A stretch of 32,000 nucleotides of DNA, taken from positions 630,001 to 662,000 of the forward strand of contig NC_016893.1 of assembly GCF_000247565.1 (NCBI RefSeq), given 5' to 3'. Positions 3,982-32,000 of this stretch are shown in pieces. The notes under the pieces were generated by a model. The model had not been told where the DNA came from and ran no database searches. It saw nothing but the letters and a program-made list of their open reading frames with translations. This stretch comes from Wigglesworthia glossinidia endosymbiont of Glossina morsitans morsitans (Yale colony). GTDB taxonomy: Bacteria > Pseudomonadota > Gammaproteobacteria > Enterobacterales > Enterobacteriaceae. How positions within the stretch are numbered: the stretch's first letter is position 1; every line of letters begins with the position of its first letter. The translations under genes were made by a program, and so were the position numbers.

Positions 3982-4632
3982 TTAACATAATTTAATAGAA
4001 TGAAAAAAATTAATGTTTTTTTTTTCTATCATTAAAAATTTTTTACAATTTTTAATTAAAATTGGCAAAATCATATTTAAATTAATTTTAGGAAAAAATT
4101 CACTTATTTGTGTCATTTTTATATTAGCATTACCGCACGGATATATATATGAAAAAGGAGATAAATCCATTTTTACGTTTAATGCTAATCCGTGTAAAGA
4201 ATAACCTTGATAAATTCTTAATCCTAAAGAACAAATTTTTTTATTTTGTACATATACTCCTGGATATCCTTTAATAAGATAACTGTAGATTTTAAAATAT
4301 AATAATGTAGAAATAACAATTTGTTCTAAAATTAATATTAATTGTTTAATTCCAATTTTTAATTTTTTAACATTTAATAAAAAATATATAACTTGTTGTC
4401 CTGGAGCATGAAAAGTTATATGACCTCCGCGATCAGTTTTAATTACTGGAATGTTAGATATATAAGATGCTTGAAATTTATCCAAATTACCTAAAGTGAA
4501 TACCGGATAATGCTCTAGAAACCAGATTTCGCTTACATGATTTATTTTATTTTTATTAATATAATTATACATAGCATGCAATATATGCTCGTATTTGTGT
4601 ACACCTAGTAAACGAATATTAGTTGTATTCAT
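3982..4632 (-). CDS. lipB: Octanoyl-[ACP]:protein N-octanoyltransferase
   Basis: LipB motifs are present: WFLEHYPVFTLG, TDRGGHITFHAPGQ, and PCG near the C-terminus. It sits immediately downstream of dacA and upstream of lipA, as in E. coli. An in-frame A10 tract (sense strand) lies at 4016-4025. Confidence 0.9.
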   Translation of the reverse strand: MNTTNIRLLGVHKYEHILHAMYNYINKNKINHVSEIWFLEHYPVFTLGNLDKFQASYISNIPVIKTDRGGHITFHAPGQQVIYFLLNVKKLKIGIKQLILILEQIVISTLLYFKIYSYLIKGYPGVYVQNKKICSLGLRIYQGYSLHGLALNVKMDLSPFSYIYPCGNANIKMTQISEFFPKINLNMILPILIKNCKKFLMIEKKNINFFHSIKLC

Positions 4633-7133: not shown

Positions 7134-8986
7134 TTATTTTTTTAACAAAATGTAATCTAATATTTTACGTACGATTTTCCCAGAAGAAATGTGTTCTTCC
7201 CCATTTTCTAATATTAGCACAATACAAACTGTTGGTTTTTCAAATGGAGCAAATGCAGTCATTAGTTTATGATCTCGAAATTTTTCCGATACTTTACTCG
7301 GATCATATATTTCATATGGCTGCAAGCTAAATACTTGCGCTGTTCCAGATTTGGCTGCTACTTTATAAGGTGCATCATAAAAATTCCTATATGCTGTACC
7401 ATTAGATCGATTTGCAACTCCATACATACCATTTTTTACAATATCCCAAAAAACAGTACGAGAATCTCCTATTTGTGCATATGAATTTTGGTGATAGTAA
7501 GTAACCGAATAACTATCTTCTTGAATAGAAGACAATAAATGCGGTGTACGTACTAATCCGTTGTTTACTAAAGTCATGAGTGCTTTTGATATTTGTATTG
7601 GTGTTGCAGTCCAGTATCCTTGTCCTATACCTACTGAAATTGTATCTCCTTGATACCAAGGTTGTTTGATATGTTTTATTTTCCATTCACGATCTGGCAT
7701 AATCCCTATATTCTCTTCGAACAAATCAATACCTGTACTCTGTCCATATCCAAATTTTTTCATCCATTCAGATAATTTATCAATTCCCATATTATATGCA
7801 ACTTGATAAAAAAAAGTATCTGCTGATTCTTCTAGCGCTTTAGTAATATTCAAATATCCATGACCCCATTTTTTCCAATCACGATAAATTTTTTCTGATC
7901 CTGGTAGTTTCCACCATCCAGGATCAAACAAAAAAAAGTTTGTACTGATACTTCCTGAATGCAATGCAGAAATAATAACATATGGTTTAATCGTAGACGC
8001 TGGAGGATACATACCTTGAGTAACACGATTGACAAAAGGACGATTAATATCGTGTGTTATTTTTAAATATTTTTTGTTTGATATGCCATTAATAAATATA
8101 TTAGGATCGTAACTTGGATTAGAAACTAATGCAAGTATTCCTCCGTCTCTAGGATCTAATACTACCACTGCAGCGCGCATAGAAGATATTAATTGTTTAA
8201 TATATCTTTGCAAATTTAAATCTAACGTTAAAGTAATATTTTTTCCTGATTTTGGTGGAGAAAAACGTAATTGTCGAATAATTTTTCCTCTACTATTTAT
8301 TTCTACTTCTTTAAAACCAGGTTGTCCATGCAATTTTTTTTCATAAAATTTTTCAATACCTAATTTTCCTATTTCTTGATTTTTGAAATAATCTAAAAAT
8401 TCTTTTTTATACTGCAATTTTTTGAATTCAGAATAATTGATTTTTGATATATATCCAATTACATGTGCTATTTCTGATCCATATGGATAATATCGGCGTT
8501 GATAGTTTTTTATTGATACGCCGGGAAAACGGTATTGATTCAAAAAAAATTTAGTATATTGAACGTCTGTAAGTTCCGATTTAATAAGCACGTTATTTAA
8601 GTAATTAGATTTTTGTTTTTCTTTTTCAAAAAACAAAATATCTGATTCATTTAAATCTAATACAGATTTTAATTCATTTATTGTATGATTAATATTTTCT
8701 ACTTGCTTTAAATTAATTTCTAATTGATAAATAGTACGATTTATTGCTAATACAATACCATTACGATCTAAAATTGTACCTCTTGTAGGAGGGACAGATA
8801 TAAATTTAATTCGATTAAAATTAGATTTGTTATGATATGTAGAAAAACAAGAAATTTGTAGATAGTACAGATTAAAAATTAAAATTCCAGTAAATAATAT
8901 AATAAAAAAAAAGATATTATAATACGATTTAAAAAAATTTTTGATTCAATAAAATATTGCTTATAATAATTTAATTTATCTTTCAT
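7134..8986 (-). pseudogene. mrdA: Penicillin-binding protein 2 (elongasome transpeptidase), reading frame interrupted at a poly(A)9 tract; possibly functional via slippage
   Basis: ORF 7134..8636 covers only the PBP2 portion from about residue 130 onward (STIKP active-site SxxK, KSGTAQ). The same frame stays open upstream without any ATG, GTG or TTG until a stop at 8946-8948, encoding FFFIILFTGILIFNLYYLQ...NRIKFISVPPTRGTILDRNGIVLAINRTIYQ. An ATG at 8986 in a different frame encodes MKDKLNYYKQYFIESKIFLNRIIISFF. Joined, the two parts align continuously with remembered E. coli PBP2 (MKLQNSFRDYTAESALFVRRALVAFLGILLLTGVLIANLYNLQ...). The frames switch inside A9 at 8904-8912, and one extra A restores a 617-aa product. 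Confidence 0.9.
8904..8912 (-). repeat. A9 homopolymer (A on both the given + strand numbering and, as T/A complement, the sense tract of mrdA mRNA reads U/A-run) marking the mrdA frameshift site
   Basis: Hand-indexed: a8904-a8912 on the + strand, flanked by t8903 and g8913. On the mrdA sense (-) strand this is a T9 run within tct ttt ttt tt|att. Confidence 0.85.
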
Positions 8987-11354: not shown

Positions 11355-13932
11355 TCAATACAAAATTAATCAATTTATTTTTAATATAGATAATTTTTTT
11401 TATTTTTTTATTTTTTAAAGAATTTTTTATTATTATACTTTTAAAAATTTTCTCTTTAATATATTTTTCATTACTTTTAAATTTAAATATCATAACTTTT
11501 TTAAATTTTCCATTAACTTGAACAATAATTTTTTTTTTCTTTTTTATAACATCAGAGTTTATTTTTGGCCATTCAGCATAATCAATATCTTTAGAACCTT
11601 TTAATTCACGCCATAATATGAAACATACATGAGGTGTAAATGGATAAAGTAAGCGTATAATAATCATAAGAATTTTTTTTGTTATTGATCGATTACATTT
11701 ATTATTTTTAATAGCATTACGTAAGTAATTTGTAAGTTTCATAATTAATGCAACTACAGTATTAAATTTATATTTGTTTTCAAAATTTTCAGTAATTTTT
11801 ATAATAATTTTTTGAGTTTGAAGTATTAAATTTGAAGATTCATGATTATTTTCAGAAGTTTCTTTTAATTTATTATTTTTATTTTTTTCGACATAATCAA
11901 AAGTCATATTCCAAATTTTTTTAATAAATCGATAAGCTCCTTGAATTCCTTTTTCTGTCCATTCTAACGAAGCCTCTGGTGGCGCCGCAAATACAATAAA
12001 TAAACGTAATGTATCTGCGCCATATTTACGAATGATATTATTTGGATGCACACCGTTATTTTTTGATTTAGACATTTTATGCATTCCAGTATGAATAAGC
12101 TTATGCCCTAAAGAATCTACAGCGTTTACAATTTGATTATTTTCATTTCTTTTAAAATTATTATTTACTGGAGTAGTCCAAATTTGGCTTCCCGAGCTAG
12201 AGATATAATAAAATGTATCTGACAATACCATACCTTGGCATAATAATTTTTTTATTGGTTCATTTGAATTTACTAAATTCATATCTTTAAATAATTTATG
12301 ATAAAATCTTAAATACAAAAGATGCATGGTCGCGTGTTCTACGCCTCCTATGTATAAATCTACTGGTAACCAGTAGTTCACAGCATTAGTATTTAACATA
12401 CCGTGTATGTAATGAGGACAAGTATAACGATATAAGTACCAAGAAGATTGTATAAAAGTATCAAATGTATCCGTTTCTCTTGTAAATCGATTTTTTTTGT
12501 AATAAATATTAATCCAATTAGCATAATTTTTTAAAGAATCAACTAATTGATCAGTATTCTTTTCTGGAAGAATGACTGGTAATTCATTTTCAGATACAGT
12601 AAAAATCTCGTTTTTATTATTTTTAATTATAGGAATTGGCGCTCCCCAATATCTTTGTCTGGAAATACACCAATCTTTTAATCTATAATGAATAATATTT
12701 TTTCCTATATGATTTGAAATTAAAAATTGAGATATTTTTTTACTTCCATCACAAAATTTTAATCCATTAAATTGCCCTGAATTACATAAAGTACTAGTCT
12801 GCATCAATTTTTTCTGTTTAAAATTAATGAAATTACCTTTACTATCTTTTAGTACATGTAGTATTGGTAAATTGTATTTTTTAGCAAAATCCCATTGGTC
12901 TTTAGAATATACAGGAACAGATAATATGGCATTATTAGAAGAATCCGGTATAAAAAAGAAATTACAGATCCATATCGGTAGTTTTTTTTGAGATATAGGA
13001 TGAATTGCAAATAAAGATGTAAAAATTCCTTTTTGATGATTCTGTTTAATATTTGTTTCAGAATTTTTTTCTGTTTGACATTTATGTATAAATGTATATA
13101 AATCATAATTTGAGCTTTTTACTGATTTTAACAGTATATGATCAGAAGAAATTATTACAAACGTTCCTCCCATAAAAGTAGCTATGTTATTTATATAGAT
13201 TTTAATTTTTTTACTGTAATTGTAAATTGATAATTCAACTTCTATGCCTTTTGATTTGCCAATCCAATTTTTTTGCATTATTTTAACTTTTTTTGGCCAA
13301 TTTTCTAACGTTTGAATATCATTTAATAATCTATCTGCATAATTAGTAATTTTTATAAACCATTGTGGAATTATTTTTTTTTTAATTCGAGAATTACAGC
13401 GCCAACACGAATTATTAATAACTTGTTCATTAGCCAATACTGTTTGATCTTTTGAGCACCAATTAACTGTAGATTTTTTTTTATACGCTATATTTTTATT
13501 ATACAGTTGAATGAAAAACCATTGATCCCAACGATAATAGTTAGGATGACATGTAATAATTTCTCGATTCCAATCATAACTGCATCCTAAAGATTTGAGT
13601 TGTTGTTTCATATTTTGAATACATTGCAAAGTCCATTTTTCAGGAGAAGTATTATTTTTTATTGCTGCATGTTCAGCAGGTAAACCAAAAGCGTCCCATC
13701 CAATTGGGTGTAGTACATTTTTTCCAAGCATTCTTTGGTATCTTGCGACGGCATCTCCTAAAATGTAATTTCTGACATGACCCATATGCAAATCTCCGGA
13801 TGGATATGGCAACATAGATAAACAGTAATATTTTTCTTTTTCAGAGTTTTCAGTCACTTCAAAAGTTTTTTTTTCTTCCCAATATTTTTGTACAAAATTT
13901 TCTATTTTTTTATGATTATAATCTTTTTGCAT
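11347..13932 (-). CDS. leuS: Leucyl-tRNA synthetase
   Basis: Class I motifs are present: PYPSGDLHMGH (HIGH) and KMSKSK (KMSKS). Collinearity with E. coli LeuS is strong. The ORF track starts at a TTG (13956). The ATG at 13932 (MQKDYNHKKIE...) gives 861 aa and matches the E. coli N-terminus (MQEQYRPEEIE). Confidence 0.93.
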   Translation of the reverse strand: MQKDYNHKKIENFVQKYWEEKKTFEVTENSEKEKYYCLSMLPYPSGDLHMGHVRNYILGDAVARYQRMLGKNVLHPIGWDAFGLPAEHAAIKNNTSPEKWTLQCIQNMKQQLKSLGCSYDWNREIITCHPNYYRWDQWFFIQLYNKNIAYKKKSTVNWCSKDQTVLANEQVINNSCWRCNSRIKKKIIPQWFIKITNYADRLLNDIQTLENWPKKVKIMQKNWIGKSKGIEVELSIYNYSKKIKIYINNIATFMGGTFVIISSDHILLKSVKSSNYDLYTFIHKCQTEKNSETNIKQNHQKGIFTSLFAIHPISQKKLPIWICNFFFIPDSSNNAILSVPVYSKDQWDFAKKYNLPILHVLKDSKGNFINFKQKKLMQTSTLCNSGQFNGLKFCDGSKKISQFLISNHIGKNIIHYRLKDWCISRQRYWGAPIPIIKNNKNEIFTVSENELPVILPEKNTDQLVDSLKNYANWINIYYKKNRFTRETDTFDTFIQSSWYLYRYTCPHYIHGMLNTNAVNYWLPVDLYIGGVEHATMHLLYLRFYHKLFKDMNLVNSNEPIKKLLCQGMVLSDTFYYISSSGSQIWTTPVNNNFKRNENNQIVNAVDSLGHKLIHTGMHKMSKSKNNGVHPNNIIRKYGADTLRLFIVFAAPPEASLEWTEKGIQGAYRFIKKIWNMTFDYVEKNKNNKLKETSENNHESSNLILQTQKIIIKITENFENKYKFNTVVALIMKLTNYLRNAIKNNKCNRSITKKILMIIIRLLYPFTPHVCFILWRELKGSKDIDYAEWPKINSDVIKKKKKIIVQVNGKFKKVMIFKFKSNEKYIKEKIFKSIIIKNSLKNKKIKKIIYIKNKLINFVLNE

Positions 13933-16069: not shown

Positions 16070-16259
16070 TAATTTTTGATATTTTTAAAAAATTACTGTA
16101 GAGTACACAATATCTCTATAATCTAAATAAAATTTTTTGATAAAAATTTAATTAAAACTTGATAAAGCTAATAATAAATTATATAAAATTAAATAAACAT
16201 GTTAATCAAAAAAAATTTTTAATCTCACAACAAATATATATTCATCAAAGGTAAAAATA

Positions 16260-16679
16260 ATTAAAAATATTTTTTTAATAGGATTTGATTTTGGTACTGA
16301 AAATATCGGTGTAGCTATCGGTCAGACAATTACTTGTACGTCTAAACCGCTAAGTTGTATAAAATCTATCCGTGGAATTCCAAATTGGAAAAAAATTTCA
16401 GAAATTTTTCAAATATGGCATCCAAACGCTATCGTTGTCGGACTACCGCTGAATATGGATGGAAGTACACAAAAAATTACAATTTATGCAAAAAAATTTG
16501 CACAAGAACTAAGAAAAAAGTTTATCATACCAGTCAATATGCAAGACGAACGTCTTACTACAATAGAAGCAAAATCTATACTATTTAATGTTCAAGGATA
16601 TCGAGGATTGAAAAAAAAACTCATAAATTCGCAATCTGCCGCTATTATTTTAAATAGTTGGATGCAAAACATGAATTGA
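16260..16679 (+). CDS. ruvX: Putative pre-16S rRNA nuclease / Holliday-junction-resolvase-like protein YqgF; start codon non-canonical (proposed ATT)
   Basis: The frame is open from 16206. It encodes (I)KNIFLIGFDFGTENIGVAIGQ...IVVGLPLNMDGSTQK...DERLTTIEAK...SAAIIL, collinear with remembered E. coli YqgF ([21 protein letters not shown]...). The ORF track lists only the ATG at 16455, which would delete the conserved N-terminal half. There is no in-frame ATG, GTG or TTG between 16206 and 16455. ATT at 16260 lies 8 nt after aaagg (16247-16251) and gives 139 aa, against about 138 in E. coli. Confidence 0.75.
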   Translation: MKNIFLIGFDFGTENIGVAIGQTITCTSKPLSCIKSIRGIPNWKKISEIFQIWHPNAIVVGLPLNMDGSTQKITIYAKKFAQELRKKFIIPVNMQDERLTTIEAKSILFNVQGYRGLKKKLINSQSAAIILNSWMQNMN

Positions 16680-16754: not shown

Positions 16755-17377
16755 ATGAATGCTTATTTTTATATTAAATTTTTATTAAGTGCAAATAACA
16801 TTTCTGATCTTCCACAAGACAACGGATGTGAAATTGCTATTTTTGGACGTTCTAATGCTGGAAAATCAAAAGCATTAAATATTTTATTTAAAAATAATAA
16901 ATTGTCTAAAAGCAGTAAAATACCAGGAAAAACAATGTTTTTAAATGTATTTAAATTAAATAACAAATTAAGAATTATTGATCTTCCAGGATTCGGGTAT
17001 GCTAATGTATCAAAAAAAAATAAATTAAACATTGCATGTTTAATAAAACAATATTTTAGATTGCGTCAATCATTAAAAATTTTAATTTTTTTAGAAGATA
17101 TCAGGCGTTCTATATTAGATTTTGACGAAAAAATAATTCATTTAATTTTAAAAAAAAAATTCCTATTTTGTTTTTATTAAGTAAATCCGATAAAGTTTCT
17201 ACAAGTTATCGTCAATTTAAATTATTACAAGTTCAAAATTTTTTTAATTTACGCAAACACGAAATTTTTTCAGAATTTTTTTTAAGTACTTTTTCTTCTT
17301 TGAATCAAGATGGGGTAAACACTGTCAGAAAAAAAATAAATTTTTGGACAAAAACTAAGATTTTTAATACTGCTTAA
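16755..17377 (+). pseudogene. engB: Ribosome-biogenesis GTPase EngB/YihA, reading frame interrupted at a poly(A)10 tract; possibly functional via slippage
   Basis: ORF 16755..17180 carries G1 (GRSNAGKS) and G3 (DLPGFGYA) and stops 7 codons after the A-run. ORF 17168..17377, whose frame is open back through the A-run, carries [12 protein letters not shown] (G4, T/S-K-x-D) and the C-terminus. Joined as ...[20 protein letters not shown] it aligns with remembered E. coli ...[20 protein letters not shown]. The frames switch in A10 at 17150-17159, and one extra A gives a 207-aa product against about 210 in E. coli. Confidence 0.9.
17150..17159 (+). repeat. A10 homopolymer on the engB sense strand marking the frameshift site
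   Basis: Hand-indexed a17150-a17159, flanked by t17149 and t17160. Confidence 0.85.
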
Positions 17378-19083: not shown

Positions 19084-19972
19084 TTTGATGCATAATCCAG
19101 CCTTCTCTACCGGATATTTTTTTACGTATTAATTTACATATCGGAAAATTTGCATGATTTTTTTCTATTAATTGATTTAATCTACAAAATTGAATGCCTT
19201 CATTTTTAGCAAGATATAATAGTTCTTTAAATTCTTTTAAATATTTAATACCTTCTATTTCAGCATGAATAGTATAAACAGAATAATCAGATTGTTTTTT
19301 CATTTGATTAATAATAAAGTTGTTATACTTTTTTAAAGTAGTATGATTATTAATTACTTCATCAAAAGTTGGTAAAGTTACTGGAATTTGCAAATTTCCA
19401 CAGCTTTTATCAGAAAGTAATGGAAAAAATGGTTTTATTCCTCTGACATCACTGTTGTAAGAAAAGTTAAATTTTTTTTGCACTTGCAACGCGGAATCAC
19501 TTGTTCTCCAACCTGGAGCAGCAAAACATAAAATAGGCGAATTTATTATTGATTCTAAAAATTTTTTACCTAATGTAATTTGATTAATAATATTTTCTTT
19601 CCTCCAAGTATCAATAGAATTTTGCCATTCAAAATGATCCCATGCATGTAGTCCAATTTCATGTTTACGAGCAGCAAGAATAATGTGGTTTTTACAGGCA
19701 TCTCCTATTTTTTTGCTTTTTCCTATTAAGCCACAACGCAAAATACTCCATCCATATGTTTTAATAGGATTAATGCGTAACATTTTAATTAAAAATTTTG
19801 GTTTAAATAATCTCCAGAAATGACGTCCCATGTTATCTGGCCCAACAGTAAAAAAAAAAGTAGCTTTAATTTGATAATTGTTTAATATTTCTAATAAATT
19901 TAATACCCCATACTTCGTGCCTCTTAATGTATCTACATCAATACGTAAACCAACTTTTTTTAAATTATTCAA
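19076..19972 (-). CDS. arnD: 4-deoxy-4-formamido-L-arabinose-phosphoundecaprenol deformylase
   Basis: KVGLRIDVDT.RGT...LLEIL......A.FFF.VGPDNMGRH, HAWDH and YTIHAE.EG match remembered E. coli ArnD. The start is TTG at 19972, with no in-frame ATG near the conserved N-terminus. Confidence 0.92.
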   Translation of the reverse strand: MNNLKKVGLRIDVDTLRGTKYGVLNLLEILNNYQIKATFFFTVGPDNMGRHFWRLFKPKFLIKMLRINPIKTYGWSILRCGLIGKSKKIGDACKNHIILAARKHEIGLHAWDHFEWQNSIDTWRKENIINQITLGKKFLESIINSPILCFAAPGWRTSDSALQVQKKFNFSYNSDVRGIKPFFPLLSDKSCGNLQIPVTLPTFDEVINNHTTLKKYNNFIINQMKKQSDYSVYTIHAEIEGIKYLKEFKELLYLAKNEGIQFCRLNQLIEKNHANFPICKLIRKKISGREGWIMHQNV

Positions 19973-23337: not shown

Positions 23338-24372
23338 ATGAATCAAAAAAACAATATTGATCATATAGCTGTATCACAACAATCTATATTAAAAAAAAAA
23401 TATATACAAGCTGATTTATTTAAGCATATATCTCATTTATTGAAATTAAAAAATGCAGTTATAGTCGCACATTATTACACTAGCCCTGAAATTCAAGAAT
23501 TGGCAGATTCTACTGGAGGTAAAGTAGCAGATTCTTTAGAAATGGCTAAATTTGGTCAACATCATACAGCGAAAACACTATTAGTAGCTGGTGTACGTTT
23601 TATGGGTGAAACTGCTAAAATTTTAAATCCGGAAAAAATAGTTCTAATGCCTACATTAAAAGCTGAATGTTCATTAGATTTGAGCTGTCCGGAAATAGAA
23701 TTCAGCAAATTTTGTGATCAACATCCAGAACGCACAGTAGTAGTATATGCAAATACATCTGCAGCTATTAAAGCACGTGCACATTGGGTAGTAACATCAA
23801 GTATTGCAATTAAACTTATTGACTATTTAGATAGTTTAGGTAAAAAAATTATCTGGGCTCCTGATAAACACTTAGGTCATTATATTCAAAAAAAAACTGG
23901 AGCAGATATTTTAAGTTGGCACGGTACATGTATCGTACATGATGAATTTAAAGCGCATTCACTATACAATATGAAAAAAATATATCCTCAAGCTGCAGTA
24001 TTAGCGCATCCAGAATCTCCAGAAAATGTACTAGCACTTGCAGATTTTATAGGTTCTACCAGTGAATTGATTAAATCTGCTCAATCAATTTCTCAAAAAC
24101 AAATTATAATTGCTACTGATCGTGGAATTTTGTTTAAAATGCAAAAAGCTTGTCCGGATAAAATTTTGTTAGAAGCTCCAACTTCTGAAGTTGGCATGAC
24201 ATGTTTAAATTGTGGCATGTGTCCTTGGATGAAGATGAATACGTTAAAAAAAATTATTAATAGTTTGACTCATGATACAAAAAAGCATGAAATTCATGTA
24301 CCAAAAAACTTACAAAAAAAAGCGTTAAAACCATTAATACGTATGTTAAAATTTGCAGAAAATTTTTTTTAA
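23338..24372 (+). CDS. nadA: Quinolinate synthase A
   Basis: VVAHYYT.PEIQ.LA..TGG...[39 protein letters not shown] and a C-terminal Cys cluster (C..C..CPWM) match remembered E. coli NadA. Confidence 0.93.
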
Positions 24373-25946: not shown

Positions 25947-26249
25947 ATGAAAAAAATAATAAAAAAAAAACTTAATGCAATATTATCACCTACTTTTTTA
26001 TATATTCAGAACGAAAGTTATAAACACAAAAATTCAAAAAATGCATACACTCATTTCAGCATCACTATAGTATGCAAAAAATTTAAAAATAAATCGCAAT
26101 TAATCAGACATCAATTAATTTATCAAATTTTATCAAGAGAACTTCGCCACGATATACACGCTCTTTCTTTGCATACTTATTGTGATGTGGAATGGAAAAT
26201 TAATAATCGATGCATTTCTAGTACGCCTATCTGTTATAATTTAAATTAA
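25947..26249 (+). CDS. bolA: BolA-family transcriptional regulator / Fe-S-associated protein
   Basis: The BolA fold signature is present: NES..H......HF...V...F......RH..IY..L..E....IHALSLHTY...EW. It lies upstream of tig as in E. coli. Confidence 0.85.
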   Translation: MKKIIKKKLNAILSPTFLYIQNESYKHKNSKNAYTHFSITIVCKKFKNKSQLIRHQLIYQILSRELRHDIHALSLHTYCDVEWKINNRCISSTPICYNLN

Positions 26250-29936: not shown

Positions 29937-32000
29937 ATGAATGCTGAGCATTCCCAAAAAATAGATATTCCAGTACTTCCATTAAGAGATGTAGTCGTAT
30001 ATCCACACATGGTAGTACCACTTTTTGTAGGAAGAGAGAAATCGATTCGTTGCCTCGAAATTTCTATGGAAAGAGATAAAAAAATTATGTTAATTGCGCA
30101 GAAAGAAGCTTCAAAAGATGAACCGAACATTGACGATCTTTTCTTGGTTGGTACTATTTCTTCTGTACTTCAAATGCTTAAACTACCTGATGGAACCGTA
30201 AAAGTACTAGTAGAAGGATTATCTCGAGCGAGTATTATTAATTTAAAAGATAATGGAGATTATTTTTCTGCAGAAATAAATTATTTTGTGATTACTGTTT
30301 CAGATAGTCGAGAACAAGAAGTATTAGTACGAGCTGCAATTAATCAGTTTGAAAATTACATTAAGTTAAATAAAAAAATTCCGCCTGAAGTTTTAACTTC
30401 GCTAAATAACATTAACGATCCAGCAAGATTAGCAGATACTATTGCCGCTCATATGCCATTAAAACTATCAGGAAAACAAACCGTATTAGAAATGACTAGT
30501 ATTACAGAAAGACTAGAATATCTTATGGCTATGATGGAATCAGAAATAGATTTATTGCAGATAGAAAAAAGAATTCGTAATCGAGTAAAAAAACAAATGG
30601 AGAAAAGTCAAAGAGAATATTATCTTAATGAACAAATGAAAGCTATACAAAAAGAACTAGGAGAAATAGAAGATACTCCAGATGAACATGAATCTTTAAG
30701 ATTAAAAATTAAATCAGCTAAAATGCCTAAAGAAGCTTTACAAAAAACAGAATCTGAATTAAAAAAATTAAAAATGATGTCTCCAATGTCAGCGGAAGCC
30801 ACAGTGGTACGCGGATATATTGATTGGATGTTATCTATACCTTGGAATACTCGTAGTAAAGTGAAAAAAAATTTAGTTATCGCTCAAAATACTCTTGACG
30901 AAGATCATTATGGATTAAAAAGAGTAAAAGATCGTATATTAGAATACTTAGCAGTGCAAAGTAGAATTTCAAAAATAAAAGGACCTATTTTATGTTTAAT
31001 GGGACCTCCAGGAGTAGGAAAAACTTCCTTAGGAAAATCTATTGCAAGAGCTACAGGAAGAAAATATATCCGTATGGCATTAGGCGGCATTCGTGATGAA
31101 GCAGAAATTCGCGGGCATCGAAGAACTTATATCGGCTCTATGCCAGGAAAAATTATTCAAAAAATGTCTAAAGTTGGAGTAAAAAATCCTTTATTTTTAT
31201 TAGATGAAATTGATAAAATTTCTACAGATATGCGAGGAGATCCAGCTTCAGCATTATTAGAAGTTTTAGATCCAGAACAAAATGTTGCATTCAATGATCA
31301 TTACTTAGAAGTAGATTATGATTTGTCAGATGTGATGTTTGTTGCCACATCTAATTCTATGCGTATTCCAGCAGCATTATTAGATCGTATGGAAGTAATT
31401 CGATTGTCTAGTTATACTGAAGATGAAAAACTAAATATTGCAAGAAAACATTTATTACCAAAACAAGTGCACCGTAATGCTCTTAAAAAAAATGAGTTGT
31501 GCATCGAAGATAATGCGCTTATGGGAATTATTCAATACTATACTAGAGAAGCAGGTGTAAGAAATTTAGAAAGAGAAATTTCTAAATTATGTCGAAAATC
31601 TGTTAAAATGATTTTAATGGATAAAGATATTAGTAGAATTCATATAAATAAAAAAAATTTAAAAAAATTTCTTGGAGTAAAACGATTTGATTATGGAAAA
31701 GCTGAAGAAAAAAATAGAATTGGTCAAGTTGTAGGGTTAGCTTGGACAGAAGTTGGCGGTGATTTATTAACAATAGAAACTGCTTGTGTTTCTGGAAAAG
31801 GAAAACTGACTTATACTGGATCTTTAGGAGAGGTTATGCAAGAATCTATTCAAGCAGCACTGACAGTAGTACGTGCTAGAGCAAATAAACTAGGTATAAA
31901 ACCAGACTTTTATGAAAAGCACGATATTCATGTGCACGTTCCAGAAGGCGCTACTCCCAAAGATGGTCCAAGTGCAGGAATAGCAATGTGTACTGCATTA
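29937..32000 (+). CDS. lon: Lon protease, 3'-partial (runs off the window end)
   Basis: This gene is not in the ORF track because no stop is reached. ATG at 29937 gives [41 protein letters not shown], nearly identical to remembered E. coli Lon. Walker A is GPPGVGKTS. The window ends after exactly 688 codons at ...[14 protein letters not shown], which contains the catalytic Ser context. Confidence 0.95.

Follow-up and report, generated by a model that had tools for sequence, protein, structure and literature searches.

The window analysed here, a stretch of 32,000 nucleotides with an overall G+C content of 23%, is part of the 719,535 bp chromosome of Wigglesworthia glossinidia, the obligate symbiont of Glossina morsitans. 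On its forward strand lies engB (yihA/ysxC), whose coding sequence runs into ten consecutive A residues (A10) at positions 17150–17159. The initial annotation had claimed that engB is split at this tract by a deficit of one nucleotide, and both the sequence and the orthologue alignment confirm it: the single missing base maps to the A10 tract as a one-column gap against intact orthologues, and the same alignment reveals no other stops or indels in the gene. Where members of the EngB family have a single uninterrupted open reading frame (ORF), the frame here breaks at A10, so that the lesion consists of a single-base indel in an A/T run of at least 9 nt within a gene that is otherwise intact. 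The parts of the locus, all on the forward strand, are:

16755 to 17159, forward strand: N-terminal frame of engB to the end of the A-tract, with G1 (GRSNAGKS), G2 (PGKT) and G3 (DLPG).
17150 to 17159, forward strand: A10 homopolymer, site of the one-nucleotide deficit and putative slippage site (from the sequence and the gap in the orthologue alignment).
17160 to 17180, forward strand: out-of-frame tail FLFCFY plus TAA of the unshifted 141-aa product (from translation).
17159 to 17377, forward strand: C-terminal frame of engB, from ATT 17159–17161 (from translation and collinearity with 1PUI).

The N-terminal part is defined by the ORF list, by its match to positions 2–130 of the NCBIfam profile TIGR03598 and by its identity to WP_041944130.1, while the C-terminal frame contains the beta strand IPILFLL, G4 (SKSD), G5 (FSS) and the C-terminal helix. 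The assignment of G1 and G3 to the ORF at 16755–17180, and of G4 and the C-terminus to the frame ending at 17377, is upheld by translation and by alignment to 1PUI. That first ORF encodes 141 aa, and its unshifted translation ends just past the tract, as had been stated, after six sense codons and a TAA stop at 17178–17180, and thus without G4 and G5. The overlapping frame is open from 17126 to its own stop at 17375–17377; since both frames are open only in 17126–17180, the switch between them is confined to those 55 nt. In RefSeq, the entry WP_041944130.1 (‘ribosome biogenesis GTP-binding protein YihA/YsxC’) has the same sequence as the 141-aa ORF, and the 69-aa downstream ORF, with its start at TTG 17168, is an exact match to WP_041944131.1 (P-loop NTPase family protein / hypothetical); the listing of these two halves as separate proteins, rather than as one frameshifted gene, is a misannotation. 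The neighbouring ArnT is identical to AFA41433.1.

Adding one A to the tract gives a product of 207 aa that matches TIGR03598, the YihA/YsxC equivalog, with 177.9 bits (curated cutoff 124.45 bits) over profile positions 2–185 of 186; the N-terminal ORF by itself scores 146.3 bits. The collinearity with E. coli EngB that the initial annotation had proposed for this product is equally clear, as alignment to the E. coli protein (PDB 1PUI) spans residues 5–199 (E = 1.6e-38) and is gap-free at the junction, with KKK paired to DSN, SKSD to the G4 motif TKAD, and FSSL to FSSL. G1, G3, G4 and G5 are all in register with the solved EngB structures, and G4 and G5, which occur only in the shifted frame, are kept across the Wigglesworthia EngB orthologues. 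The repaired product therefore aligns over essentially its full length with the 50S-subunit assembly GTPases E. coli EngB/YihA (1PUI) and B. subtilis YsxC (1SUL/1SVI), from which it differs in two respects: its coding sequence is interrupted, and its G4 begins with Ser in place of Thr/Asn, a feature common to all the Wigglesworthia orthologues. EngB is essential in both E. coli and B. subtilis.

With the repaired protein as query, two more truncated versions of 141 aa (89% and 86% identity) were found, together with two orthologues of full length, namely P0001, of 213 aa, and P0004, of 203 aa. The relatives compared at the DNA level are L001 (SRR14633898, a 59-kb contig of the Logan assembly), L002 (SRR5590063, also from Logan), L003 (W. 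glossinidia ‘palpalis gambiensis’, SRR21669498; PMC10868223) and L004 (W. brevipalpis). The gene order rsmE–gshB–ruvX–engB–arnT is the same in L001, L003 and L004, which places engB at a position orthologous to that of the annotated Wigglesworthia yihA, and the gene order of L002 also matches that of the window. The comparison of orthologous tracts that the initial annotation had suggested divides these relatives into two groups. Both L001 and L002 carry exactly TTTTAAAAAAAAAATTCC, with the same A10, the same frame break and a truncated ORF of 141 aa. At the tract position L003 reads GAAAAAAATATT and L004 reads AATTTAAAAATT, and both are in frame and lack a long run. In its DNA, engB of the window shares 93.1% identity with that of L001 and 86.4% with that of L002, so that these relatives represent distinct lineages rather than repeat sequencing of one genome, and the frameshift has thus been kept across lineages at 86–93% DNA identity. 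Loss of engB conservation in relatives, which had been named as an outcome that would refute the initial reading, did not occur: the frameshift and the frame downstream of it are both retained. At the level of sequence, these comparisons establish that the Wigglesworthia lineages most closely related to the G. morsitans symbiont have a common ancestor in which a one-base deletion, from A11 to A10, was fixed, and that this took place only after the palpalis and brevipalpis symbionts had branched off. The simplest history is that, after the palpalis split, substitutions created an in-frame A11 run from which one A was lost, with the loss fixed before the three lineages diverged. Neither of the repaired proteins, of 207 and 206 aa, has an exact match among ~15 billion proteins, including those of public-run assemblies, and it follows that none of these assemblies yielded an 11-A consensus; nor does the same collection hold an in-frame version of a morsitans-type EngB. 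A scan of genome contigs with the repaired protein gave only an unrelated match from Anaerobutyricum and none from Wigglesworthia.

The part of engB beyond the tract has continued to evolve as a coding sequence. Between the window and L001, the restored frame has a post-tract dN/dS of 0.28 (from 7 synonymous and 9 non-synonymous changes, a small test with 16 substitutions in all), as compared with values of 0.85 and 1.01 for the two alternative frames; the N-terminal part of the gene gives 0.23, and the synonymous excess in the restored frame has P = 0.021. Over the 104 nt covered by the L002 contig, post-tract differences at the first, second and third codon positions number 6/4/15 between the window and L002, and 3/3/14 between L001 and L002. 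The C-terminal part is 92.7% identical to L001, with 0 gap columns and 0 stops, and is thereby comparable to rsmE (91.8%), gshB (92.3%) and the N-terminal part of engB (93.3%). The four adjacent spacers, by comparison, are only 48–80% identical and contain 15 indel events in 362 aligned nt (0.04 per nt), and at that rate the absence of any indel from 218 nt has a probability of ~1e-4. The further disabling mutations, the dN/dS near 1 and the indels of a decaying pseudogene are all absent from engB. Taken together, the dN/dS values, the codon-position bias and the lack of gaps mean that the post-frameshift region evolves as coding in a frame that the genomic sequence cannot reach, and these comparisons demonstrate that purifying selection has continued to maintain engB on either side of the tract since the deletion.

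The window holds a second break of the same sign, as the initial annotation had pointed out, in mrdA, where a T run is also short by one base:

8904 to 8912, reverse strand: T9 run in the sense strand of mrdA (A9 on the forward strand), in need of one more nucleotide.

Here the T9 run separates a 27-codon N-terminal frame, beginning at ATG 8986 (window 8879–8986), from the main PBP2 frame; the N-terminal frame reads MKDKLNYYKQYFIESKIFLNRIIISFF and joins the PBP2 frame only if T9 becomes T10. The repaired MrdA of 617 aa scores 956 bits and matches the MrdA model from position 1, while the RefSeq model of mrdA with an ATC start scores 937 bits and matches from position 25. We considered whether the break might be merely a mis-called start and rejected this, as the upstream frame adds 19.5 bits and takes the match to profile position 1; an ATC start in the main frame may nevertheless offer a second route to the protein. 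Public annotations start MrdA either downstream of the break or at an ATC in the main frame. Each of the four Wigglesworthia lineages available (morsitans, the SRR14633898 lineage, palpalis gambiensis and the deeply diverged brevipalpis) has an identical T9 and an identical break, a comparison that includes a palpalis assembly from Illumina data at >1,400x (relatives L006, L007 and L008, around 1400–1520). Being shared by all sampled lineages, the mrdA break is older than the engB lesion, and it is arguably the more striking case of the two.

These two tracts stand out against a background of many similar runs. Within genes of the window there are 34 A/T runs of at least 9 nt, the longest of which reach 10 nt and never 11, and only the engB A10 and the mrdA T9 break a frame. 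Other in-gene runs of 10 nt are found in leuS (11529–11538 and 13374–13383, both in-frame A10 runs on the sense strand), arnD (19850–19859), lipB (4016–4025), nadA (23391–23400) and bolA (25961–25970). As in-frame runs of 10 nt, for example that of arnD, are also conserved in L001, conservation of a tract is by itself no evidence of selection for slippage. If slippage here were as frequent as in Buchnera, an appreciable fraction of the transcripts of such intact genes would have to be lost to frameshifting.

By analogy with other insect endosymbionts, we think it probable that engB remains functional through slippage of RNA polymerase on the A10 run, with the addition of one A as the main route. 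The polymerase would slip backwards on the ten A residues, so that some of the transcripts gain an additional A, and ordinary translation of these 11-A mRNAs would yield the full 207-aa GTPase with G1–G5. Slippage of the ribosome by –1 on A AAA AAA may contribute, with an identical protein as its result, while unslipped messages would give the 141-aa product, which lacks G4 and G5 and is probably inactive. The net outcome would be a lowered output of EngB, presumably tolerated by the symbiont. In Buchnera and Blochmannia, symbionts of aphids and ants respectively, genes with poly(A) frameshifts are conserved between species, and 12–50% of their transcripts are frame-corrected (PMC5009743; PMC3017870). 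Error sequencing across the transcriptomes of E. coli and Buchnera has found that the great majority of indels in A/T runs are insertions of a single base, that transcription indels rise exponentially in frequency with run length, and that deletions in runs are seldom seen (PMC5574713). If polymerase slippage in such runs is almost wholly a matter of single-base insertion, only lesions in need of one more nucleotide can be rescued, which would explain why the mrdA lesion (T9 where 10 are needed) shares its sign with that of engB (A10 where 11 are needed). One observation speaks against slippage in this organism: A/T runs, whatever their length, occur as often in coding as in non-coding sequence of W. 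glossinidia (PMC1088944), which Baranov and colleagues (2005) took to suggest that transcriptional slippage does not occur there (PMC1088944). However, their result is equally well explained by weak selection in a bottlenecked symbiont. Public RNA-seq datasets from this system are in existence (PRJNA387614 and PRJNA668823).

Among the other explanations, rescue mainly during translation deserves the most attention, although we regard it as unlikely. On this account the mRNA stays unedited and the ribosome slips by –1 on A AAA AAA AAA, through re-pairing or sliding of tRNA-Lys, and several overlapping zero-frame heptamers of the form X XXY YYZ are indeed available in TTA AAA AAA AAA TTC; a slippery A AAA AAA is present, as is trivially true of any long homopolymer. 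The sense-strand site of mrdA, TCT TTT TTT TTA, likewise holds slippery heptamers, and it has been proposed in review that endosymbionts may tolerate indels by corrective ribosomal frameshifting (PMC5009743). The protein made by a –1 shift is exactly that made from an mRNA with one more A, and for this reason the proteomic search for KKKIPILF proposed in the initial annotation cannot separate the two mechanisms. The surroundings of the tract give the ribosome little help, however, as the 101 nt at 17160–17260 fold with –5.8 kcal/mol, no better than shuffled sequences (z = 0.18), and inspection of the sequence 5′ of the tract finds no Shine–Dalgarno-like motif (GGAG/AGGA-like). With both a stimulatory structure and a Shine–Dalgarno-like element absent, any –1 slip would be unstimulated, and in the only endosymbionts tested correction has been observed at the RNA level. 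Correction might alternatively reside in the DNA, if replication slippage in a polyploid symbiont keeps a minority of A11 copies beneath a consensus that displays the A10 majority. Long A/T runs are prone to replication slippage (PMC3017870), yet A10 is what three independent consensus sequences contain, an advantageous minority allele that restores the frame would be expected to sweep, and the corrected frames of Buchnera and Blochmannia were found in transcripts and explained by transcriptional slippage (PMC3017870; PMC5009743). We consider such a hidden allele very improbable.

It is also conceivable, but in our judgement doubtful, that engB is a genuine pseudogene in this clade, its function lost or dispensable, and that what appears as conservation reflects too little time for decay. 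The ORF is after all interrupted, the unshifted product lacks G4 and G5, and in simulation 16 neutral substitutions leave the frame free of stops ~30% of the time. Some very reduced symbiont genomes, moreover, lack engB. Against this stand the presence of the frameshift in three lineages with up to ~14% DNA divergence, the low downstream dN/dS with its third-position bias and its freedom from the indels that have accumulated in the spacers, the essentiality of EngB in E. coli and B. subtilis and the intact gene of the other two Wigglesworthia genomes. Downstream conservation would likewise be predicted if the 141-aa and 69-aa ORFs were translated separately and reassembled as a two-piece GTPase, and both are annotated as proteins. 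But no ribosome-binding motif precedes TTG 17168, the position of that codon is not conserved (L002 has TTA there, with a TTG two codons later), and a start at 17168 would lose part of the core beta strand before G4, all of which leaves a split gene hardly credible. Finally, the break could be an artefact in the deposited genome of the G. morsitans symbiont, with A11 as the true tract. That genome was sequenced by the Sanger method at 9.4x from MDA-amplified DNA and PCR-amplified clone inserts (PMC3280448), each step of which can slip in homopolymers, so that a homopolymer error in this single record needs independent evidence to be dismissed. Such evidence comes from the identical A10 and break in two independent assemblies of diverged relatives, made from other sequencing runs, which argue that this is not a sequencing error; the tract length in the G. 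morsitans record itself is confirmed indirectly, via these relatives, and we judge an artefact to be extremely improbable.

Polymerase slippage on the A10 run, the reading that we favour, has close parallels elsewhere. Tamas et al. (2008, in PNAS) and Wernegreen et al. (2010, in MBE) reportedly described poly(A)/poly(T) frameshifts of Buchnera and Blochmannia that are rescued by transcriptional slippage. With Buchnera aphidicola and Blochmannia the present case shares an AT-rich obligate insect endosymbiont as its setting and a single-base indel in an A/T run of at least 9 nt (PMC3017870), as well as an essential and otherwise intact gene whose frameshift is kept between diverged lineages with no accelerated decay. 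It differs in its host clade, the Wigglesworthia of tsetse flies, for which one study of genome statistics has argued that slippage may not operate; engB is not among the frameshifted genes named in the available Buchnera and Blochmannia literature. Backward polymerase slippage on A/T runs of ~9 nt or more also joins overlapping frames in Thermus thermophilus dnaX, Shigella mxiE and the transposases of insertion sequences (PMC1088944; PMC5009743). In those systems, however, slippage makes two products or regulates expression, whereas the break in engB has the look of a lesion that is tolerated, since the outgroups show the ancestral form to be an ordinary in-frame gene that lacks the tract. 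E. coli dnaX resembles engB in its slippery heptamer of lysine codons (A AAA AAG) and in the –1 direction of its ribosomal frameshift, but has an upstream Shine–Dalgarno-like element and a downstream hairpin, neither of which is found at engB.

Other insect endosymbionts already provide well-documented examples of the phenomenon, and it has been suggested in general terms for this genome, whose authors found no more than indels of 1–2 nt in 6 of its 11 pseudogenes and suggested rescue at homopolymers (PMC3280448). What is new here is the identification of engB, the finding that purifying selection persists in the diverged lineages that have its lesion in common, and the corrected annotation; the engB case reveals no new mechanism. 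If polymerase slippage does maintain engB, rescue through polymerase infidelity would extend to a third independent endosymbiont lineage, the Wigglesworthia of tsetse flies, and to an essential ribosome-assembly GTPase. The RefSeq models at these loci (two engB ‘proteins’ and an mrdA that starts at ATC) would then be artefacts of a slippage site, and reconstructions of gene content and metabolism in Wigglesworthia, a target for tsetse control, should count engB and mrdA as present. A bolder hypothesis, to which we give little credence, is that the engB and mrdA breaks are selected, heritable ‘slippage valves’ that set a low expression of growth genes dependent on polymerase fidelity. The growth genes so controlled would be EngB, for ribosome assembly, and PBP2, for cell elongation, and the mrdA T9 would be an obligatory recoding site across the sampled lineages rather than a product of drift, with engB as a younger recruitment.

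Three further observations concern other parts of the window. An Rfam search of the window returned nothing. The gene ruvX (yqgF; 16206–16679, forward strand), just upstream of engB, appears split in the ORF listing because it lacks a canonical start codon: it has no ATG, GTG or TTG start, with TTA in the place of the TTG start of L001, and its only near-cognate starts are ATA 16257 or ATT 16260. The rest of ruvX is intact (TIGR00250 positions 1–129 of 130), and a frameshift at its A9 run (16611–16619) was considered and rejected, as no indel is seen against L001. Lastly, downstream of clpP–clpX, in the region at ~30150–32000 on the forward strand, the G+C content climbs to 32% and both GC and AT skew are strongly positive; this is probably where lon begins, a gene missing from the ORF list that would extend beyond the end of the window.
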